A DNA stretch of 64,000 nt from Nostoc sp. DedSLP01. Its GTDB lineage: Bacteria; Cyanobacteriota; Cyanobacteriia; Cyanobacteriales; Nostocaceae. The DNA is taken from contig JAVRCJ020000004.1 of the NCBI GenBank assembly GCA_034530875.2, positions 96,001 to 160,000 of the forward strand, given 5' to 3'. Shown here in pieces: positions 23,730-33,484 of the stretch. The notes under the pieces were generated by a model that was not told the origin of the DNA, ran no database searches, and saw only the letters and a list, made by a program, of their open reading frames with translations. The position numbers and the translations under genes were made by a program. Position 1 is the first letter of the stretch. Every line of letters starts with the position of its first letter.

Positions 23730-25574
23730 ATGCAAATCTGCCAAAATCCCAATTGCTCAAATCCATTTAATTCTGATAGCAATAGATTTTGTATCAGTTG
23801 CGGACAAAGCAACTTTGGCAAACTTCTCAGAAACCGCTACCGCGTTTTGGGGCTATTAGGAGAAGGTGGGTTTAGCAGAACTTATGCCACAGAAGATGTA
23901 GATAGACTAAATGCCCCCTGCGTCATCAAGCAATTTTTCCCGCAATTTCAAGGAACGGCACAACGCACTAAAGCAGCCCAATTTTTCAAAGAAGAAGCTT
24001 TTCGGCTGTACGAACTGGGAGAAAATCATACCCAAATTCCCAGATTACTTGCTTATTTTGAGCAAGGTACTAGTTTGTACCTCGTACAAGAATTTATTCA
24101 AGGTAAAACCCTTTTACAAGAAGTTCAGCAACAAATTTATGGCGAACAAGAAATTTGGCAACTTTTAGCTGATTTGTTACCAGTTCTAGAATTTATTCAT
24201 GCCAGTAACATTATTCATCGGGATATTAAACCAGAAAATATTATTCGCCGTGCCAGCGATGGTAAACCAGTATTAATTGACTTTGGTGGTGCTAAACAGG
24301 TAACACAAACTAGTTTTGGCAGACAAGCTACAGTAATTTATACAGTTGGTTATGCCCCAACCGAACAAATGGCTGGATTTGCTTGTCAGGCAAGCGATTT
24401 ATATGCTTTGGGCGTAACTTGCGTGCGCCTTCTGACTCAATGTTTGCCTTTACAATATGTTTCCGGACAAATTAAAGATCCTATTTATGATGCCATGAAT
24501 GCTAAGTGGCTGTGGCGCGAAAAATTACAAGAAAAAGGTATTACTATCAGCGACGAACTAGGAAAGATTTTAGAGAAATTACTCCAACATTTACCCAATG
24601 ACAGGTATCAAACAGCAACAGAAGTTATTAAAGATTTGGAATTTACAAAATTAAACTTGGAACCTGTTGCGCTCAAAATGGTTTCCATTCCCAAACCCAT
24701 ATTATCGCTGCCACGACCAAAAATAATAGTACCATTACCGCCTTTAAAAACTTTTGAATTTGATGTCGTGACAGTAGACACAGGAAGTAGAGAAGTTAGC
24801 CGCGTTAGTCGTAGTGCAGAATTTTTTGCGGAAGAATTGGGTAAGTCTGTCAGCCTGGAAATGGTATCAATTCCTAGCGGTACGTATATGATGGGTTCGC
24901 CAGAGTTTGAAGGAGATGCTGACGAATGTCCTCAACGCCAAGTTACTGTAAAACCATTTTTTATGGGAAAATTTCCTGTAACTCAAGCACAGTGGAGAGT
25001 GGTAGCAGCTTTACCCAAAGTCAAACAAACCTTAAATCCTAATCCATCAAAATTCAAAGGTTTAGATAGACCAGTAGAAAATGTATCTTGGTACGAAGCT
25101 GTAGAATTTTGTCTCAGGCTATCAGAAAAAACTGGACGCGACTATCGTTTACCGAGTGAAGCTGAATGGGAATATGCTTGTCGTGCTGGAACTAAGACAT
25201 CCTTTCACTTTGGCGAAACCATTACCAGTGATTTAGTTTGCTGTGCTGACGAACCAAAAAGCAAATTCCGCAAAGAAACAACAAACGTAGGCAGTTTTGA
25301 AGTAGCGAATGCTTTTGGATTGTACGATATGCACGGGCTAGTTTGGGAATGGTGCGCCGACCCGTGGCATAACAATTATCATGATGCGCCTGCCTATGCA
25401 AGTGTTTGGGAAGTCGGGGGTGATATGCATCGCCGGGTGTTACGCGGTGGTTCTTGGAATTTCAGCGCCGAACTTTGTCGCAGCGCCAGCCGTAGTTGGA
25501 ATGAGTCAGACGGCGGGTTGAGGATTTGTGGCTTTCGGGTGGTATTTTCTAGCGAAGGAATACCGGAATATTAG
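23730..25574 (+). CDS. Ser/Thr protein kinase with N-terminal 4-Cys motif and C-terminal FGE-sulfatase (CLec-fold) domain
   Basis: CQNPNC..CISC, GEGGF, HRDIKPEN, DFG; RLPSEAEWEYACRAG, FGLYDMHG and RGGSW...GFRVV. Confidence 0.93.
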   Translation: MQICQNPNCSNPFNSDSNRFCISCGQSNFGKLLRNRYRVLGLLGEGGFSRTYATEDVDRLNAPCVIKQFFPQFQGTAQRTKAAQFFKEEAFRLYELGENHTQIPRLLAYFEQGTSLYLVQEFIQGKTLLQEVQQQIYGEQEIWQLLADLLPVLEFIHASNIIHRDIKPENIIRRASDGKPVLIDFGGAKQVTQTSFGRQATVIYTVGYAPTEQMAGFACQASDLYALGVTCVRLLTQCLPLQYVSGQIKDPIYDAMNAKWLWREKLQEKGITISDELGKILEKLLQHLPNDRYQTATEVIKDLEFTKLNLEPVALKMVSIPKPILSLPRPKIIVPLPPLKTFEFDVVTVDTGSREVSRVSRSAEFFAEELGKSVSLEMVSIPSGTYMMGSPEFEGDADECPQRQVTVKPFFMGKFPVTQAQWRVVAALPKVKQTLNPNPSKFKGLDRPVENVSWYEAVEFCLRLSEKTGRDYRLPSEAEWEYACRAGTKTSFHFGETITSDLVCCADEPKSKFRKETTNVGSFEVANAFGLYDMHGLVWEWCADPWHNNYHDAPAYASVWEVGGDMHRRVLRGGSWNFSAELCRSASRSWNESDGGLRICGFRVVFSSEGIPEY

Positions 25575-25734
25575 CTTTTTTTCAACGCAAAGGTACGCAA
25601 AAGTAAACGCAAAGGTACGCGGAGGTTTTTTAGAGAATCATTAGGCGCATTTTCATAGAGAATTGGCATGAATTGGAAACTAAAGTTGAAAAACTGCTAA
25701 TATTAATCAAAAATTGAAACTTTTAGAGGTGTAA

Positions 25735-26088
25735 ATGAGTGAAATTCCTCTTTGTACTATAGTGATTTCATCCCAGCTGCCTCCAAATGAAATAGAGTCT
25801 TTAGAAACATCCCTGGAGATGAATTCAATCAAAGTGCAAAAGTCACCCAGTCGGATAATAGGTGCAGATGACATAGTTTTTGTGGCTACAGTTATTGGAG
25901 GGATAGCAGCAACAGCCAATTTGATAGAGTACAGTATCAAAGTCGCTAAGGCAATCAATAATTGGCGGCAAAAATTGCGAGAAAAAGGAACAGAACCAAA
26001 AGGCACGTTAGAACACCCAAAACGTCCCCCACTGGATTTAAGCACCGCTACTGATGAAGAAATAGAAGAATGGCTGTCTCAAAAGTAG
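25735..26088 (+). CDS. Small protein with a central Gly/Ala-rich hydrophobic helix (EACC1-like, tentative)
   Basis: RBS GAGGTG; segment IIGADDIVFVATVIGGIAATANLI followed by W-R-x-K; overlaps the next ORF by 19 nt. Confidence 0.7.
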   Translation: MSEIPLCTIVISSQLPPNEIESLETSLEMNSIKVQKSPSRIIGADDIVFVATVIGGIAATANLIEYSIKVAKAINNWRQKLREKGTEPKGTLEHPKRPPLDLSTATDEEIEEWLSQK

Positions 26089-29000
26089 CTAACAAAATTC
26101 CCCTTAGTCCAGGTTTAGAAAAAGTTACTAAACAAGATAATTCGTTCAGCAATCAAATTCTAATTTTGTTTTCAGCCCCTCTGTTGACTGAAGAGTTATC
26201 GCCAGTCGAAAATTTATCGATTCAGGAAGAAATTGATGCCATCGCTTTGGTGTTAGAGGATATATCTCACCCTATAGCAGTGGAAATAGTAGTTAAAGTA
26301 GCCACTTCACAGAATCTACAAGATGTGTTATCCCATCGTGTCAAACCACTGATTATTCATTTTATTGGTCATGGAATGAAAGATGGGGATAGTACAGCTT
26401 TGGTGTTAGAAGATGAAGTGGGGATTACTCGCTCTTTTAGTGAAGAAGAATTAGATATTGCTTTATCAAATCAAAAACAACCACCCTGTCAATTAGCATT
26501 ATTGAACGCCTGTCATTCAGAAAAGTTAGCTCAAGCTTTTATCAAAGCGGAAGTGTCTCATGTCATTGCGGTTAACGCCGAAGATAGAATTCTAGATGTT
26601 GCAGCCCGATGTTTTTCTCGACGAGTGTATCAGGCACTATTCAATCAAGATTCTGTTGCGAATAGTTTTTTATTAAGTCGTAATGCAGTTAAACTTGATG
26701 ATAAATTAAGAAAACTATTTAACTCTCAAACTTTTCAGCAAGGAGTTAATTTCGATGAAGCCTTCAAATTTCGATTGCTACCTCAAGCTTCTCATCATGA
26801 ATCGCTGATTATAGAACCAACAGATTCTCACCAGGTTATCTATCCCCAATGGTCAAATACTAATATTCCCCGTTACGATCCAAACTTTGTAGGACGCAGA
26901 CAAGAAATACATCAAGTAATTAAAGCACTAATAGAGTCCGATAAACGTTGTATTGCTCTACATGGGATGGGAGGAATCGGTAAAACTGCCTTAGCTTATG
27001 CTATTGGTCAGTGGTTACATGAACGCAACCGCTATAAGGATGGCGTTTGGTTTATTAGTTTGCGCGATACTGATTCTGTAGGAACGCTGATTACTAAAGT
27101 TAAACAGAGTCTCGAATTAAATAGTTTTGCTTTAGAGAAAGAGTTAAGAAATAGTCGAGTGTTGTTGATTCTTGATGATTTAGATAAATTGATTGAGAAA
27201 GAATCTGATGAACTCATTGAAGTTTTAAACTCACTTTTAGAACAGTGTCCTCATTTAAGGCTATTGTTGACTTCCCGCGATTCTCTTGTTAGGGATATTG
27301 TTTATTGCCATCAAGAAGAAGTTTGTAGCATGGGAGCATCAGAAACGAGAGAAATATTTAAAAAGTATGCGCCATCGCCAGCAGGATGGGGAGATAATGA
27401 TTTGGCAGAAGATTTTAATCTTTTAGTACAGTTTCTTGATGGTTATCCTTTACCCATTAAACTCGCAGCATCTTATATGGCAGAAACTCAATGCACTCTT
27501 AAGATGCTGTGTGAAGACTTGGACATTGAACCACTGGAAGTTCTTCGTTCTTATTCTCCTGAAGCAAGAAAAGAAAGAAGTCTGCGGATAACATTAGAGC
27601 GTTCTTTTGAAATGTTATCGGTAGAAGGGCAAGATATATTTCCTTTGTTAGCTTTCTTTCCTAGTGGATTAAGTCGGGATTTGGCGAGGGCTGTTTGGGG
27701 TAGAAGCGGAAATAAGGCTGTAATAGAACTGTTTAAGTTTTCAATGGCAGAAAAGTCTTCTACTGCATCTGATTGGAGAGTAACTTTGCCCGAACCTGCT
27801 CGTACTTATGCAGAAAGTAAATTACAAAAAGGAAGACGAATTGACTATCTTGCTCCGCAAGTTATGGATTTTTATTGTGGTAATTTCTGCAACAAAGTTC
27901 TCCAGTTTTTTGACAATGGAGATAAGAATAAAGGACAGCAATTACTTCTGGAAGAAAACTCAAACTTAGTTTCATTTCTTCAATGGGGTTACGAGAATGA
28001 AATAAGTTCAGATAAAATCTGTCGCAGTGCAAGGATAACAGCTTCCTTAAGTCCTTATTGGCGATGGATTGAAGCGAATCAAGACCCTTTGGCTAGATTG
28101 GAATTGGCAATCAAGGCAGCCCAAAGAAATCAGGATCGAGTGGGAGAAGATTTAGTGAGCAATGCCATCGCTGCTTTTTCTTCTAGAGAAGTATTTAAAG
28201 ATGTTCAATCTTGCGGACGAGAAAGTGATGCGTTAAACTCCTTTGAGTTTGAAACTGTCACCGTAAATCGTTGGGGCAAAATCATCGAACGAGAAACCAA
28301 GCAAGCCCAACACTTTAGCGAAGACCTGGGTGAAGGTATCACCTTAGAAATGGTCGTCATCCCCGGTAATACATTGATGATGGGTTCCCCAAAAGGGGAA
28401 GGATATCGCTCTGAAAAACCTCAGCATGAAGTGACAGTTCCATCCTTCTTCATGAGTAAGTATCCAGTCACCCAAGTACAATGGCGAGCCGTAGCAGCAC
28501 TACCCCAAGTTAACCGCGACTTAGAACCAGAACCATCGCGGTTTAGAGGAGATAACCGACCAGTAGAGCAAGTTTCCTGGTACGATGCGGTGGAATTTTG
28601 CGATCGCCTCTCCCAACATATAGGCAAAAGCTACCGCCTGCCTAGTGAAGCGGAATGGGAATATGCTTGCCGTGCTGGTACTGATACACCGTTTCATTTT
28701 GGAGAAACCATTACTGCTGAGTTAGCAAATTATGATGCCAGCACAACTTTTGCTGACGAACCCGAAGGAGAATATCGAGGAATAACCACCCCAGTAGGAG
28801 AATTTCCGCCTAACACCTTTGGGTTATATGATATGCACGGAAATGTCTGGGAATGGTGTCTGGACGATTGGCACGATAACTATGAAGGAGCGCCAACAGA
28901 TAGCAATCCTTGGTTTGATGATAATAATCTTTCTCAAAAAAAAGGAACAGCCGTGCTGCGGGGCGGTTCTTGGTTCAACTTTCCTAAGGACTGCCGTTTT

Positions 29001-29096
29001 GCGTCTCGCAGTCTCAACCTTAGGGCGGGGCGCGACGGCATCGACTTCAATATTGGTTTTCGTGTTGTCTGTGGGGTTACGGGGACTCTTAAGTAG
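26070..29096 (+). CDS. CHAT (caspase-like) protease + STAND/NB-ARC ATPase + FGE-sulfatase (CLec) multidomain protein
   Basis: CHAT dyad IIHFIGHG / LLNACHS; FVGR, Walker A GMGGIGKT, Walker B LLILDDLD, LLTSR, GYPLPI; C-terminal RLPSEAEWEYACRAG and RGGSW...GFRVVC. Confidence 0.9.
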   Translation: MAVSKVANKIPLSPGLEKVTKQDNSFSNQILILFSAPLLTEELSPVENLSIQEEIDAIALVLEDISHPIAVEIVVKVATSQNLQDVLSHRVKPLIIHFIGHGMKDGDSTALVLEDEVGITRSFSEEELDIALSNQKQPPCQLALLNACHSEKLAQAFIKAEVSHVIAVNAEDRILDVAARCFSRRVYQALFNQDSVANSFLLSRNAVKLDDKLRKLFNSQTFQQGVNFDEAFKFRLLPQASHHESLIIEPTDSHQVIYPQWSNTNIPRYDPNFVGRRQEIHQVIKALIESDKRCIALHGMGGIGKTALAYAIGQWLHERNRYKDGVWFISLRDTDSVGTLITKVKQSLELNSFALEKELRNSRVLLILDDLDKLIEKESDELIEVLNSLLEQCPHLRLLLTSRDSLVRDIVYCHQEEVCSMGASETREIFKKYAPSPAGWGDNDLAEDFNLLVQFLDGYPLPIKLAASYMAETQCTLKMLCEDLDIEPLEVLRSYSPEARKERSLRITLERSFEMLSVEGQDIFPLLAFFPSGLSRDLARAVWGRSGNKAVIELFKFSMAEKSSTASDWRVTLPEPARTYAESKLQKGRRIDYLAPQVMDFYCGNFCNKVLQFFDNGDKNKGQQLLLEENSNLVSFLQWGYENEISSDKICRSARITASLSPYWRWIEANQDPLARLELAIKAAQRNQDRVGEDLVSNAIAAFSSREVFKDVQSCGRESDALNSFEFETVTVNRWGKIIERETKQAQHFSEDLGEGITLEMVVIPGNTLMMGSPKGEGYRSEKPQHEVTVPSFFMSKYPVTQVQWRAVAALPQVNRDLEPEPSRFRGDNRPVEQVSWYDAVEFCDRLSQHIGKSYRLPSEAEWEYACRAGTDTPFHFGETITAELANYDASTTFADEPEGEYRGITTPVGEFPPNTFGLYDMHGNVWEWCLDDWHDNYEGAPTDSNPWFDDNNLSQKKGTAVLRGGSWFNFPKDCRFASRSLNLRAGRDGIDFNIGFRVVCGVTGTLK

Positions 29097-29168
29097 CCCT
29101 TTATACTTTTTACCTTTTGCACTTTACACTTGTTCTTTTTTTCTTTTCTTTTGTCGCCATAAGGCGAC
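28953..29168 (+). other. Putative DGR variable region with downstream pyrimidine tract and hairpin
   Basis: Non-conserved codons between RGGSW and GFRVV end almost always in C/T; hairpin GTCGCC-ATAA-GGCGAC at 29153-29168. Confidence 0.65.
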
Positions 29169-29211
29169 TCGATTTTTTTAACATCTTTTGAAGTTAAAGT
29201 TGATGACGAAC

Positions 29212-29345
29212 CAATACGGTTCGGTTAAGGTTTTTTCATGAAAATTTTAGATCCCAAAGAAGCGATAAATCGCCGTCTCTACAAAAATCAATCCTTTGTA
29301 GAGACGGCGATTTATCGCGTCTCTTGCCTTAACCGAACGGTATTG
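29212..29345. mobile_element. 134-bp MITE with 19-bp TIRs carrying an inverted pair of REP-like units
   Basis: CAATACGGTTCGGTTAAGG / CCTTAACCGAACGGTATTG (18/19); degenerate 10-bp flanks GATGACGAAC / GATAACAAAT; internal GCGATAAATCGCCGTCTCTACA...TGTAGAGACGGCGATTTATCGC. Confidence 0.8.
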
Positions 29346-29998: not shown

Positions 29999-30781
29999 AT
30001 GGTCATCGAAGCTAAAAATCTTGCCTTACCAGATCATACTCAACTACCAGAGTCCGATGGTACTTTCGTGAAAAATTTCCAAGAACATCCTCAAAGTATT
30101 CTATTGACTGATTCTATCCTGCCACGATTACAAGAAATTCATCCTGACGGCTATTATTGTATCGGTCAAGACTCTGGTATTTACTGGCGGTTAACAGAAC
30201 CACCAGAACGGGGTGCTGAGGCACCAGATTGGTTTTACGTACCTAATGTTCCACCAACTCTTGACGGTCAATTCCGACGTTCTTATGTTTTTTGGCAAGA
30301 ATTGATTGCACCGATGATTGTTTTAGAATTTGTCTCAGGAGATGGAGAGGAAGAACGAGATAAAACCCCTTACAAAGGAAAATTTTGGATTTATGAAAAT
30401 ATTATCCGTCCTCCTTATTACGGCATTTATGAAGTTAAAAAATCATCGGTGGAAGTATATCAATTAGTGGCTAATCATTACGAAAAAATGGTTCCTAATA
30501 GTAGGGGACATTATCCAATTCCACCAATGGGTGTGGAATTAGGTATTTGGCAAGGTAACTTTGTATCAAACGAAGAAATACCTTGGTTGCGGTGGTGGGA
30601 TGAACAAGGTAATCTACTGCTAACAGGAGATGAACGTGCCGAAGTTGAACGCCAACGCGCGGAAGCTGAACGCCAACGTGCAGAAGCTGAACGCCAACGT
30701 GCAGAAACGGTAGAGCAGGAAAATCAGCGGTTGCGGGAACGGTTACGTGCATTGGGTATCGATCCTGATGCGTTGAGTTAG
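29999..30781 (+). CDS. Uma2 family endonuclease-like protein with C-terminal (ERQRAEA)n coiled coil
   Basis: LPDHTQLPESDG, APDWFYVP, LEFVS and WLRWWD motifs; 21-nt repeats near 30633-30705. Confidence 0.92.
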   Translation: MVIEAKNLALPDHTQLPESDGTFVKNFQEHPQSILLTDSILPRLQEIHPDGYYCIGQDSGIYWRLTEPPERGAEAPDWFYVPNVPPTLDGQFRRSYVFWQELIAPMIVLEFVSGDGEEERDKTPYKGKFWIYENIIRPPYYGIYEVKKSSVEVYQLVANHYEKMVPNSRGHYPIPPMGVELGIWQGNFVSNEEIPWLRWWDEQGNLLLTGDERAEVERQRAEAERQRAEAERQRAETVEQENQRLRERLRALGIDPDALS

Positions 30782-30991: not shown

Positions 30992-32806
30992 ATGCAAATC
31001 TGCCAAAATCCCAATTGCTCAAATCCTTTCAACCCTGATAGCAATAGATTTTGTATGAGTTGCGGACAAAATAACTTTGGCAACCTGCTGGGAAATCGCT
31101 ACCGTGTTTTGCAACTCTTAGGCGAAGGTGGGTTTGGTAGAACTTACACAGCAGAAGATACAGGTAGATTTGATGATGTTTGTGTCATTAAACAATTTTT
31201 TCCCCAAGTACAAGGAACAGCAGCACTTTCTAAAGCAGCAGAATTATTCAAACAAGAAGCTAAGCGACTTTATGAATTGGGAGAAAATCACTCTCAAATT
31301 CCGAGATTGTTAGCTTATTTTGAACAAGGTTCGAGCTTGTATTTGGTGCAAGAATTTATTCGCGGGCAAACTCTGCTCAAAGAACTTCAGCAAAAAGCTT
31401 TTAGTGAAGAACAAATTCGGGAACTTTTAGCAGATTTATTACCAGTTCTGCAATTCATCCACGATCGCAACGTCATCCATCGAGATATTAAGCCAGAAAA
31501 TATCATGCGAAGGGAGAGCGATCGCAAACTAATTCTAATAGATTTTGGCGGCGCCAAACAAGTAACACAAACTAGTTTAGCCAGACAAGCCACAGGAATT
31601 TACACCGTTGGTTATGCTCCTAGCGAACAAATGGCAGGATTCGCCACTCCTGTTAGCGATTTATATGCTTTGGGTGCAACTTGTGCCCGTCTTTTAACTC
31701 AAAGTCTGGCTGTGCAAGATACCTCTGGAAATCTCCATGACCGTCTTTATGATGCTTTTAACGCTCAGTGGATGTGGCGAGAACTTTTGCAAGAAAAAGG
31801 TGTTACTATCAGCGACGAGTTAGGGCAAATTTTAGATAAATTGCTCAAGCACTTGCCAAAGGAAAGATATCAATCAGCAGCAGAAGTTTTAGAAGATTTA
31901 AATTCTCCAAAAACCAAAATTCCAACAACAATTATTACAATTCCCCAACCGCAATTATTACCCGTTCAACCAAACACTACATCTCTACAAACTTTTGAAT
32001 TTGATGTAGTTAAAGTAGACGCAACAGGGAAACAAATTAGTCGTCAACGCCATAGTGCAAACTTCTTTGTTGAAGACTTGGGAAATGGTGTAATTCTCGA
32101 AATGGTATCCATTCCTGGTGGTACTTTTATCATGGGTTCAGCAGAGAACGAGGGAAAGGCTAATGAACGTCCACAGCATCAAGTAAAAGTTTCTGCATTC
32201 TTTATGGGTAAATATGAAATTACCCAAGCGCAGTATGAAGCAATTATGGGCACTAACCCTTCTTACTTCCGCACCAATGACGCAAACCGACCTGTGGAAA
32301 GTGTGAGTTGGAATGATGCGGTAGAATTTTGTCAAAAGTTGAGTCAAAAGACAAGACGAACCTATCGTTTACCCAGCGAAGCAGAATGGGAATATGCGTG
32401 TCGTGCTGGAACCACTACACCATTTTATTTTGGTGAAACGATTACCGTAGATTTAGCAAACTACAACGGAAATTATACATACGCCTCTGCACCAAAAGGT
32501 GAATATCGCAAGCAAACAACACCAGTAGGAAGTTTTCCTGCTAACGCCTTTGGTTTATACGATATGCACGGGTTAGTCTGGGAATGGTGTCAAGATAACC
32601 AGCATCATAATTACCAGGGCGCACCCACTGATGGTAGTGCTTGGTTACAAACTGGTTTATTCTCTAATTTGTTATCTGATAGAGTGATGCGCGGTGGTTC
32701 TTGGGGCTTTCTTCCAGAAGGTTGTCGCAGCGCAAATCGTAAGTCCGATGGTGCTAATATCCGTTTCAACAGTATTGGTTTTCGTGTTGTCTTAGTTTCC
32801 GTGTGA
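30992..32806 (+). CDS. Ser/Thr protein kinase with FGE-sulfatase (CLec-fold) domain; paralog of 23730-25574
   Basis: Same architecture as 23730-25574; first 35 nt of the two ORFs are identical; HRDIKPEN, DFG, RGGSW...GFRVV. Confidence 0.93.
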   Translation: MQICQNPNCSNPFNPDSNRFCMSCGQNNFGNLLGNRYRVLQLLGEGGFGRTYTAEDTGRFDDVCVIKQFFPQVQGTAALSKAAELFKQEAKRLYELGENHSQIPRLLAYFEQGSSLYLVQEFIRGQTLLKELQQKAFSEEQIRELLADLLPVLQFIHDRNVIHRDIKPENIMRRESDRKLILIDFGGAKQVTQTSLARQATGIYTVGYAPSEQMAGFATPVSDLYALGATCARLLTQSLAVQDTSGNLHDRLYDAFNAQWMWRELLQEKGVTISDELGQILDKLLKHLPKERYQSAAEVLEDLNSPKTKIPTTIITIPQPQLLPVQPNTTSLQTFEFDVVKVDATGKQISRQRHSANFFVEDLGNGVILEMVSIPGGTFIMGSAENEGKANERPQHQVKVSAFFMGKYEITQAQYEAIMGTNPSYFRTNDANRPVESVSWNDAVEFCQKLSQKTRRTYRLPSEAEWEYACRAGTTTPFYFGETITVDLANYNGNYTYASAPKGEYRKQTTPVGSFPANAFGLYDMHGLVWEWCQDNQHHNYQGAPTDGSAWLQTGLFSNLLSDRVMRGGSWGFLPEGCRSANRKSDGANIRFNSIGFRVVLVSV

Positions 32807-32920: not shown

Positions 32921-33484
32921 ATGGATAGCGTTGTTCTCAATCTAAAAGCGATCGCTAATTTAAGCGATGATCAATTTTATCAATTGTGTCTTGATAATCA
33001 CGATTTAAGCTTGGAAATGAATGCAGCAGGAGAATTAATCATTATGCCACCAGTCGGAGGAGAAAGCGGAAATCAAGAAGCTGGACTAATAACTGATTTA
33101 GAAATCTGGAATCGTCAAACGAAATTAGGCAAAGTTTTTAGTTCTTCAACTATTTTTATTCTGCCAAATGGTGCGAAACGTTCCCCTGATGCAGCTTGGG
33201 TGAAGTTGGAGAGATGGGAAGCTTTAACACCAGAACAGCGCAAAAAATTTCCGCCGCTTGTACCCGATTTTGTTATTGAACTGCGTTCTGAAACAGATAG
33301 GCTCCAACCCATCCAAGAGAAAATGCAAGAATATATCGAAAATGGTTTGCGTTTGGGATGGTTGATTAATCCTCAAGATGCAAATGTGGGAATTTACCGA
33401 ATCAAAAAAGCTGTAGAAGTTGTGCAAATGCCAGCGGTTCTTTGTGGAGAAGATATCTTACCAGGATTTGAGTTGCAACTGTAA
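32921..33484 (+). CDS. Uma2 family endonuclease-like protein
   Basis: GELIIMPP, RSPDAAWV, PDFVIELRS and LGWLINP motifs. Confidence 0.93.
   Translation: MDSVVLNLKAIANLSDDQFYQLCLDNHDLSLEMNAAGELIIMPPVGGESGNQEAGLITDLEIWNRQTKLGKVFSSSTIFILPNGAKRSPDAAWVKLERWEALTPEQRKKFPPLVPDFVIELRSETDRLQPIQEKMQEYIENGLRLGWLINPQDANVGIYRIKKAVEVVQMPAVLCGEDILPGFELQL

Follow-up and report, generated by a model that had tools for sequence, protein, structure and literature searches.

In a 64,000-nucleotide window of the Nostoc sp. DedSLP01 genome (assembly GCA_034530875.2, contig JAVRCJ020000004.1, positions 96,001 to 160,000; positions below are those of the window unless a contig or locus is named), the segment 28956-29071 is, judged from its sequence, a variable region (VR) written by a diversity-generating retroelement (DGR). 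It lies in the lectin end of a large gene, the target, which together with a small partner gene forms a two-gene module (Table 1). We propose that this VR is likely frozen, and that the block of avd, reverse transcriptase (RT) and template repeat (TR) which wrote it likely sat directly downstream and has been deleted, a reading to which we give a probability of about 0.7.

The source assembly comprises 8.57 Mb in 113 contigs and is 99.78% complete; the genus set holds 127 genomes and the order set 400 further genomes. A search of 40 relatives retrieved close copies, and the TR of one relative, G020 (L033:8587-8702), was taken as the reference. The VR aligns with this TR over 116 bases without a gap and with 21 mismatches. 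Of these, 16 fall on the 31 adenines of the TR and only 5, all of them C>T, among its remaining 85 bases (p 1.6e-7). It is because of this adenine-biased, gap-free alignment that we read the segment as DGR-written. The third codon positions are skewed too: the 26 codons past RGGSW end in C (13), T (8) or G (5) and never in A, as against 134 C and 331 A endings among the 962 codons of the remainder of the gene (Fisher test, p 1.9e-5 for C-ending codons and p 2.6e-5 for the absence of A). A first-pass annotation, made from the letters alone, had already pointed to these features. The codons it listed after RGGSW, and the pyrimidine tract and hairpin it described beyond the stop codon, are all where it placed them, its bias towards C- or T-ending codons holds at 21 of the 26 third positions, and the TR form that it predicted is close to the actual TR.

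Behind the stop codon, positions 29095-29179 are 81% identical over 85 bases to the G020 spacer between the last target and avd. The hairpin within this tract, GTCGCC-ATAA-GGCGAC, folds as DNA at -7.4 kcal/mol (z -5.1) and none of 200 shuffles is as stable; in the 20 listed copies its loop is variable and its stem pairs 6/6 in 15 copies and 5/6 in the other 5. The hairpin put forward by the first-pass annotation is real, its stability exceeding that of the shuffles and its sequence being homologous to the pre-avd spacer. GC-rich inverted repeats are a known DGR element (PMC5758913; this and all other papers are cited for the portions covered), with which the hairpin is compatible. It matches the pattern of a terminator as well, and a terminator role is possible. 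The first targets of two-target cassettes have no such hairpin and are diversified nonetheless, that of G020 fully, so that this class can do without the hairpin. The fit to a terminator and the hairpin-less first target of G020 would both suit a reading in which no DGR was ever involved, the lectin tail being simply GC-rich and the hairpin behind it no more than a terminator. For the VR, that reading is refuted by the gap-free TR match, and the other four lectin tails of this genome, with 1-5 A-ending codons each, lack the signature of this class; we give it practically no credence.

We consider the VR likely to be frozen because the assembly is without a TR, Avd or DGR RT. As the first-pass annotation had observed, the window contains neither RT nor TR. 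The short-word BLASTN that it had proposed, run with word size 7 against the whole assembly, returned no second copy of the VR and no TR. An ungapped scan that tolerated changes at adenines found no TR on any contig either, the best non-self score being -22, where the G020 TR scores 70; 35 TR-like queries matched only the VR itself, one paralog tail and two short pieces of the assembly, and none of the five RGGSW-GFR tails in the genome is AAC-rich. The only two RTs of the assembly, one from a group II intron (it exceeds the cut-off of TIGR04416) and the other a 600-residue RT of a different kind, are 24-26% identical to the DGR RT of G020 (24% for the 600-residue protein), and no RT of the DGR clade was found in the assembly; a DGR RT is present in 23 of the 127 genus genomes, this one not among them. 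Avd gave no tblastn match in the assembly at E 1 and no match to PF22296, although none of 14 control genomes exceeds the cut-off of that model either. Three sequencing runs that carry this DNA come from one study, possibly the source of the assembly and so not independent; matched at 80% likeness, they yield one assembled contig over the VR with no other letters. When the same runs were matched to the G020 avd-RT-TR block, only that contig was recovered, at the TR; the lack of cover over the rest of the block is no proof by itself, as rare variants are lost from assembled contigs and some records are filtered. No RNA dataset was among the runs listed for this DNA. In viral contigs, neither the VR-class pattern nor a relative of the CHAT part was found. 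As for the 600-residue RT (L002:994-2796, contig C5), it is under all NCBIfam cut-offs and bears a weak likeness to defence RTs.

These searches bear on the stronger form of the first-pass inference, namely that the gene is now being diversified in trans by a DGR elsewhere in the genome, one which the assembly would have overlooked. The stem of the hairpin is intact, the assembly is in 113 contigs, and multicellular bacteria are on record as having targets that are diversified in trans (PMC10907252, PMC5758913), all of which would favour such an active remote target. It finds no support in an assembly of 99.78% completeness from which TR, Avd and DGR RT are absent, and the five non-adenine mismatches to the best TR, together with a degenerate 3' motif, argue against it as well; we regard it as very improbable. 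Of the parts of a complete DGR of the BPP-1 type, the adenine-biased VR at the 3' end of a CLec gene is present, and the TR, the DGR-clade RT and Avd were not found in the assembly. The remote-target definition of Wu et al. 2018 requires a match, differing almost only by A-to-N changes, to a TR in the same genome, and the assembly has none. What is seen corresponds instead to the leftover targets of Nimkulrat et al. 2016, the VR matching the non-adenine sites of a relative's TR while DedSLP01 has neither RT nor TR. The first-pass annotation had also named, as a result that would count against its reading, the absence of TR and RT from the genome or its relatives: none is found in the assembly, but the relatives have both.

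Where the lost block may have stood is indicated by those relatives. In G020 the cassette consists of two targets, avd (over the NF033474 cut-off), RT and TR in a row. The target gene of DedSLP01 occurs in 9 of the 127 genus genomes; G122 and G124 have a broken copy, the remaining 7 an intact one, and the 8 other genus carriers hold the module at the tatA/pth locus. In all 8 of these orthologs the start of avd stands directly behind the hairpin, and it ends at one of two types of junction. In type 1 (G005, G008, G094 and G113), about 240 bases of avd are followed by a convergent Uma2 gene, the stump of G008 being interrupted by an insert; in type 2 (G110, G122, G124 and G128), about 33 bases of avd are joined to the spacer that normally lies 3' of the TR. 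A third junction is present in G457, and avd fragments in G509. In DedSLP01, cassette homology stops at 29179. Elsewhere in the assembly, a cassette-end scar of 53 bases (contig C88, 7026-7078, minus strand) is 88.7% identical to the conserved cassette 3' end (E 1e-12 among the loci compared) and adjoins a Uma2 gene that is 84-85% identical to the Uma2 gene behind the type 1 avd stumps. Both ends of a cassette thus survive in this genome, as the hairpin tract and the C88 scar, with the middle gone; we infer that the two once belonged to a single cassette. The insertion site of the module is empty in four close relatives, G093, G091, G052 and G022. In 25 of the 127 genus genomes (a hand count), there is a VR-only match of at least 80% to this TR and no DGR RT match. 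Two further states of decay are seen at the tatA locus: in G024 (L041) the 3' portion of avd is joined to a piece of the lectin, while both RT and TR are whole, and in G070 (L170) there is a TR alone.

The VR and its surroundings also bear what look like signs of freezing or decay. Against either of two TRs the VR has 4 non-adenine changes, whereas eight VRs from genomes with an RT show at most 1. In the 3' constant segment, the GGGAG motif (29079-29083), kept in 61 of the 66 distinct VRs of the class, reads ACGGG in DedSLP01, and the serine of the C-R-S-A motif, which is Ser in 153 of 171 tails, is replaced by Phe here (Phe in 2 tails, this one included).

A number of observations weigh against local loss followed by freezing. 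At least 4 non-adenine changes relative to the G020 TR are found in 12 of the 66 class VRs, some of the synonymous T's are present in other TRs, and working DGRs can also show non-adenine changes (PMC5758913). The C88 scar may derive from another cassette. In DedSLP01 itself the hairpin is not followed by a stump of avd, and the module is at a different locus from that of the orthologs, and for these two reasons the adjacency of avd, RT and TR in this genome is taken from the relatives. A plasmid or a gap in the 113-contig assembly could hide a DGR. Finally, orthologs with the same junction differ from each other at 50-69% of 32 adenine sites and at 0-8% of the other sites (nine pairs, G005 being left out because of an indel); unrelated VRs differ at a mean of 0.60 of the adenine sites (sd 0.09), and same-junction orthologs are thus no more alike. 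Since same-junction orthologs carry independent VRs, a single ancestral deletion followed by freezing is insufficient.

The last of these points leads to the possibility that the VR is frozen now but was last rewritten after the local cassette was lost, either by a DGR acting in trans and since gone, or through recombination with a DGR-bearing relative that supplied a ready-made lectin-VR block. On the tree of the folP-tpiA flank, the two types of junction are interleaved with support of 100/100, and synonymous divergence (dS) between the DedSLP01 gene and its orthologs rises from 0.23-0.44 in the N-terminal parts to 0.76-0.99 in the lectin scaffold, with a similar jump in G124; both findings point towards recombination. 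The gene trees of the target itself hold no starred fork. Remote writing may have parallels in G372, where the VR of the target best matches the remote TR of its own genome (ungapped, with 15 mismatches at adenines and 6 elsewhere), and in G021, where one target pair lies away from the RT locus. On the other side, this TR together with its spacer is not fully matched in any of the 9 genus carriers, and of the 5 order-level genomes that have a remote TR as well as the gene, 4 have a VR that does not match that TR (15-28 non-adenine mismatches plus gaps); best-TR assignments for G362 and G412 were end-gap artefacts and were disregarded, and an RT was found in 6 of the 14 genomes examined around this question. 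No donor of the lectin scaffold was found, the orthologs, at 77%, being the closest. We think such a late rewriting or exchange of alleles unlikely, though worth keeping in view. To that extent, the first-pass proposal that the gene was recently diversified in trans may hold for the last rewriting event. The orthologs show an adjacent cassette and its deletion. Our preferred reading is still deletion of an adjacent avd-RT-TR block.

Among the relatives, G021 (L034, L035 and L036) has four VRs that belong to the template class of G020; its RT has no TR behind it and a separate TR is of another length, so that the matching template seems to have been lost there too. At L104 and L144, the copy in TR position itself carries adenine-site changes and stands beside a target VR; L070 is a similar case.

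The gene that carries the VR is not decaying as a whole. Outside the VR its dN/dS is 0.20-0.24 against seven orthologs, which shows purifying selection. Pfam recognises a CHAT domain (E 1.8e-8, 34.6 bits against a cut-off of 24), an NB-ARC domain (E 9.4e-16, 58.3 bits against a cut-off of 23.5) and an FGE-sulfatase domain (E 5.1e-55), and all 20 homologues compared keep His101 and Cys148 of the CHAT protease. The protein therefore has the layout of an effector, a STAND NTPase and a C-terminal sensor; PADLOC gave only weak ATPase matches.

The 117-residue partner, which falls into no Pfam family, has 112 close homologues and was found in 13 of the 400 order-level genomes. A CHAT-NB-ARC gene is directly downstream of it in 12 of these 13 and in all genus copies examined; of those 12 order-level copies, one is truncated, one is cut by the end of its contig, and the other ten have the whole lectin, their tails belonging to various template types. 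No adjacent RT was seen in any of 20 copies (order-level genomes, the 9 genus copies and one Calothrix record, L102) in the fetched flanks, which in some cases extend no more than a few hundred bases from the gene. Asp45 of the partner is invariant in 54 close homologues. In its structural model (predicted local distance difference test, pLDDT, 80.5), Asp45 lies just after a low-confidence flexible loop and before a hydrophobic stretch, which is modelled as a strand plus loop and not as one membrane helix. A fold assignment for this model was dropped, the matches being middling (best Z 8.5, root-mean-square deviation 2.9, 90 residues aligned). A distant kinship with the EACC1 family is suggested by 15 of 84 distant homologues scanned (111 were found), which match Pfam EACC1 at E under 0.01, all below its cut-off, and by an Atlas lead to EACC1 (0.89, 10% of that cluster); it counts against this kinship that neither the partner nor any of the 54 close homologues matches the Pfam model (PF19953).

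By analogy with known systems, partner and target are predicted to form a protease-gated cell-suicide defence system. In the history that we favour, TR RNA would have been copied by RT and Avd with errors at adenines, and the resulting cDNA would have replaced the VR by mutagenic retrohoming, fixing the binding surface of the lectin. The avd-RT-TR block would then have been lost downstream, after which the VR would have undergone only ordinary mutation. As in the EACC1-protease systems, binding of a ligand by the lectin may turn on the STAND ATPase and the CHAT protease, which may cut the partner near Asp45; the membrane-damaging fragment so freed would kill the infected cell.

Table 1 Features of the two-gene module and its 3' side (window positions)
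Feature	Position	Strand	Basis or remark
Two-gene module, between two kinase-lectin genes	25671..29179	+	85-86% identity to the tatA/pth module of 7 relatives
117-residue partner gene, distant EACC1-like, predicted protease-activated effector	25735..26088	+	overlaps target start
1008-residue target gene: CHAT protease, NB-ARC/STAND ATPase, helical linker, FGE-sulfatase/C-type lectin	26070..29096	+	
DGR variable region, core	28956..29071	+	homology to template repeats of relatives; the G020 TR is the best among the TRs compared
3' constant segment and stop codon, degenerate; by position, putatively like the initiation of mutagenic homing (IMH) site	29072..29096	+	GGGAG motif altered
Pyrimidine tract, corresponding to the 5' portion of the spacer between target and avd in intact cassettes	29097..29152	+	spacer homology
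GC-rich hairpin, 6-bp stem and 4-base loop, then T run; DGR inverted repeat and/or terminator	29153..29168	+	
136-base palindromic repeat, putatively like a miniature inverted-repeat transposable element (MITE)	29210..29345	.	just past the end of cassette homology

The two genes that flank the module (23730-25574 and 30992-32806) each encode a Ser/Thr kinase with an FGE/lectin part, and their tails are not of this VR class. Two genes for Uma2 putative endonucleases are also close by (29999-30781 and 32921-33484). The palindromic repeat behind the cassette homology folds at -48 kcal/mol (z -12.6) and has eight blast matches in the genome, two of them of at least 110 bases; part of it is at very high depth in the sequencing runs.

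A single relic of this kind is ordinary, leftover DGR targets being already published and common in the genus. Isolates of Treponema denticola without RT and TR keep such targets (Nimkulrat et al. 2016, PMC4891356), whose VRs, as here, differ from the TR of another strain mostly at adenines and were read as remnants of a lost core DGR. DedSLP01 differs in being a filamentous cyanobacterium, in the target, which is a cytoplasmic-type protease-STAND-lectin protein, and in that deletion junctions are visible. Among cyanobacteria, Vallota-Eastman et al. 2020 (PMC7517822) report remnant TR-VR homology with no nearby RT for all3226, and propose that the diversification parts are removed once a variant has been selected. 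Their survey shares the CLec/FGE class of targets with our case, but it is one of genomes with a complete DGR, and DedSLP01 has none. In their supplement, CLec+CHAT and CLec+P-loop/NB-ARC form two distinct categories, and a joined CHAT-NB-ARC-CLec protein with a small partner was not seen in the examined portion of that paper.

The closest relatives of the module in layout are the EACC1-caspase two-gene conflict systems (Kaur et al. 2020, PMC7159879; Evans et al. 2025 preprint, PMC12642450), which likewise have a small 5' gene and a 3' gene with an N-terminal caspase-superfamily protease, a STAND ATPase and a variable sensor. PMC12642450 shows cleavage at a putative Asp49 that frees a pore-forming fragment, and mentions DGR-linked versions. 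In DedSLP01, by contrast, the partner does not match the Pfam EACC1 model, its hydrophobic part is modelled as a strand plus loop and the protease is of CHAT type. EACC1 is absent from two supplement files of that preprint, one of them partial. DGR-diversified STAND-CLec antigen sensors of multicellular bacteria (Dore et al. 2024, PMC10907252) share the effector-STAND-CLec layout with the VR in the lectin, and degenerate loci and one non-varying target are described among them; those genomes keep working DGRs and most of the targets vary in nature, whereas in DedSLP01 no DGR was found. No paper on the exact module was found in a literature search covering text other than figures, among them Fig. 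6A of PMC12642450, which may show it.

What the present case adds is its visible deletion history and its host module. A tentative extension, to which we give some but not much credit, is that the module is an immune sensor that is written and then locked: a conserved cyanobacterial suicide module would repeatedly couple to passing DGRs, have its tip randomised and then fixed by deletion of the avd-RT-TR block, and so keep a selected specificity that is peculiar to each lineage. The absence of an RT from the fetched flanks of all 20 copies and the at least three deletion junctions are consistent with this, as are the several template classes on the same gene, the independent VRs in every ortholog compared and the purifying selection. 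A small two-gene system with naturally fixed, independent lectin tips would offer a panel for the ligands of cyanobacterial DGR lectins and for whether these trigger protease-gated cell death. The module would also test the published idea that the parts of a DGR are removed after a good variant has been found.

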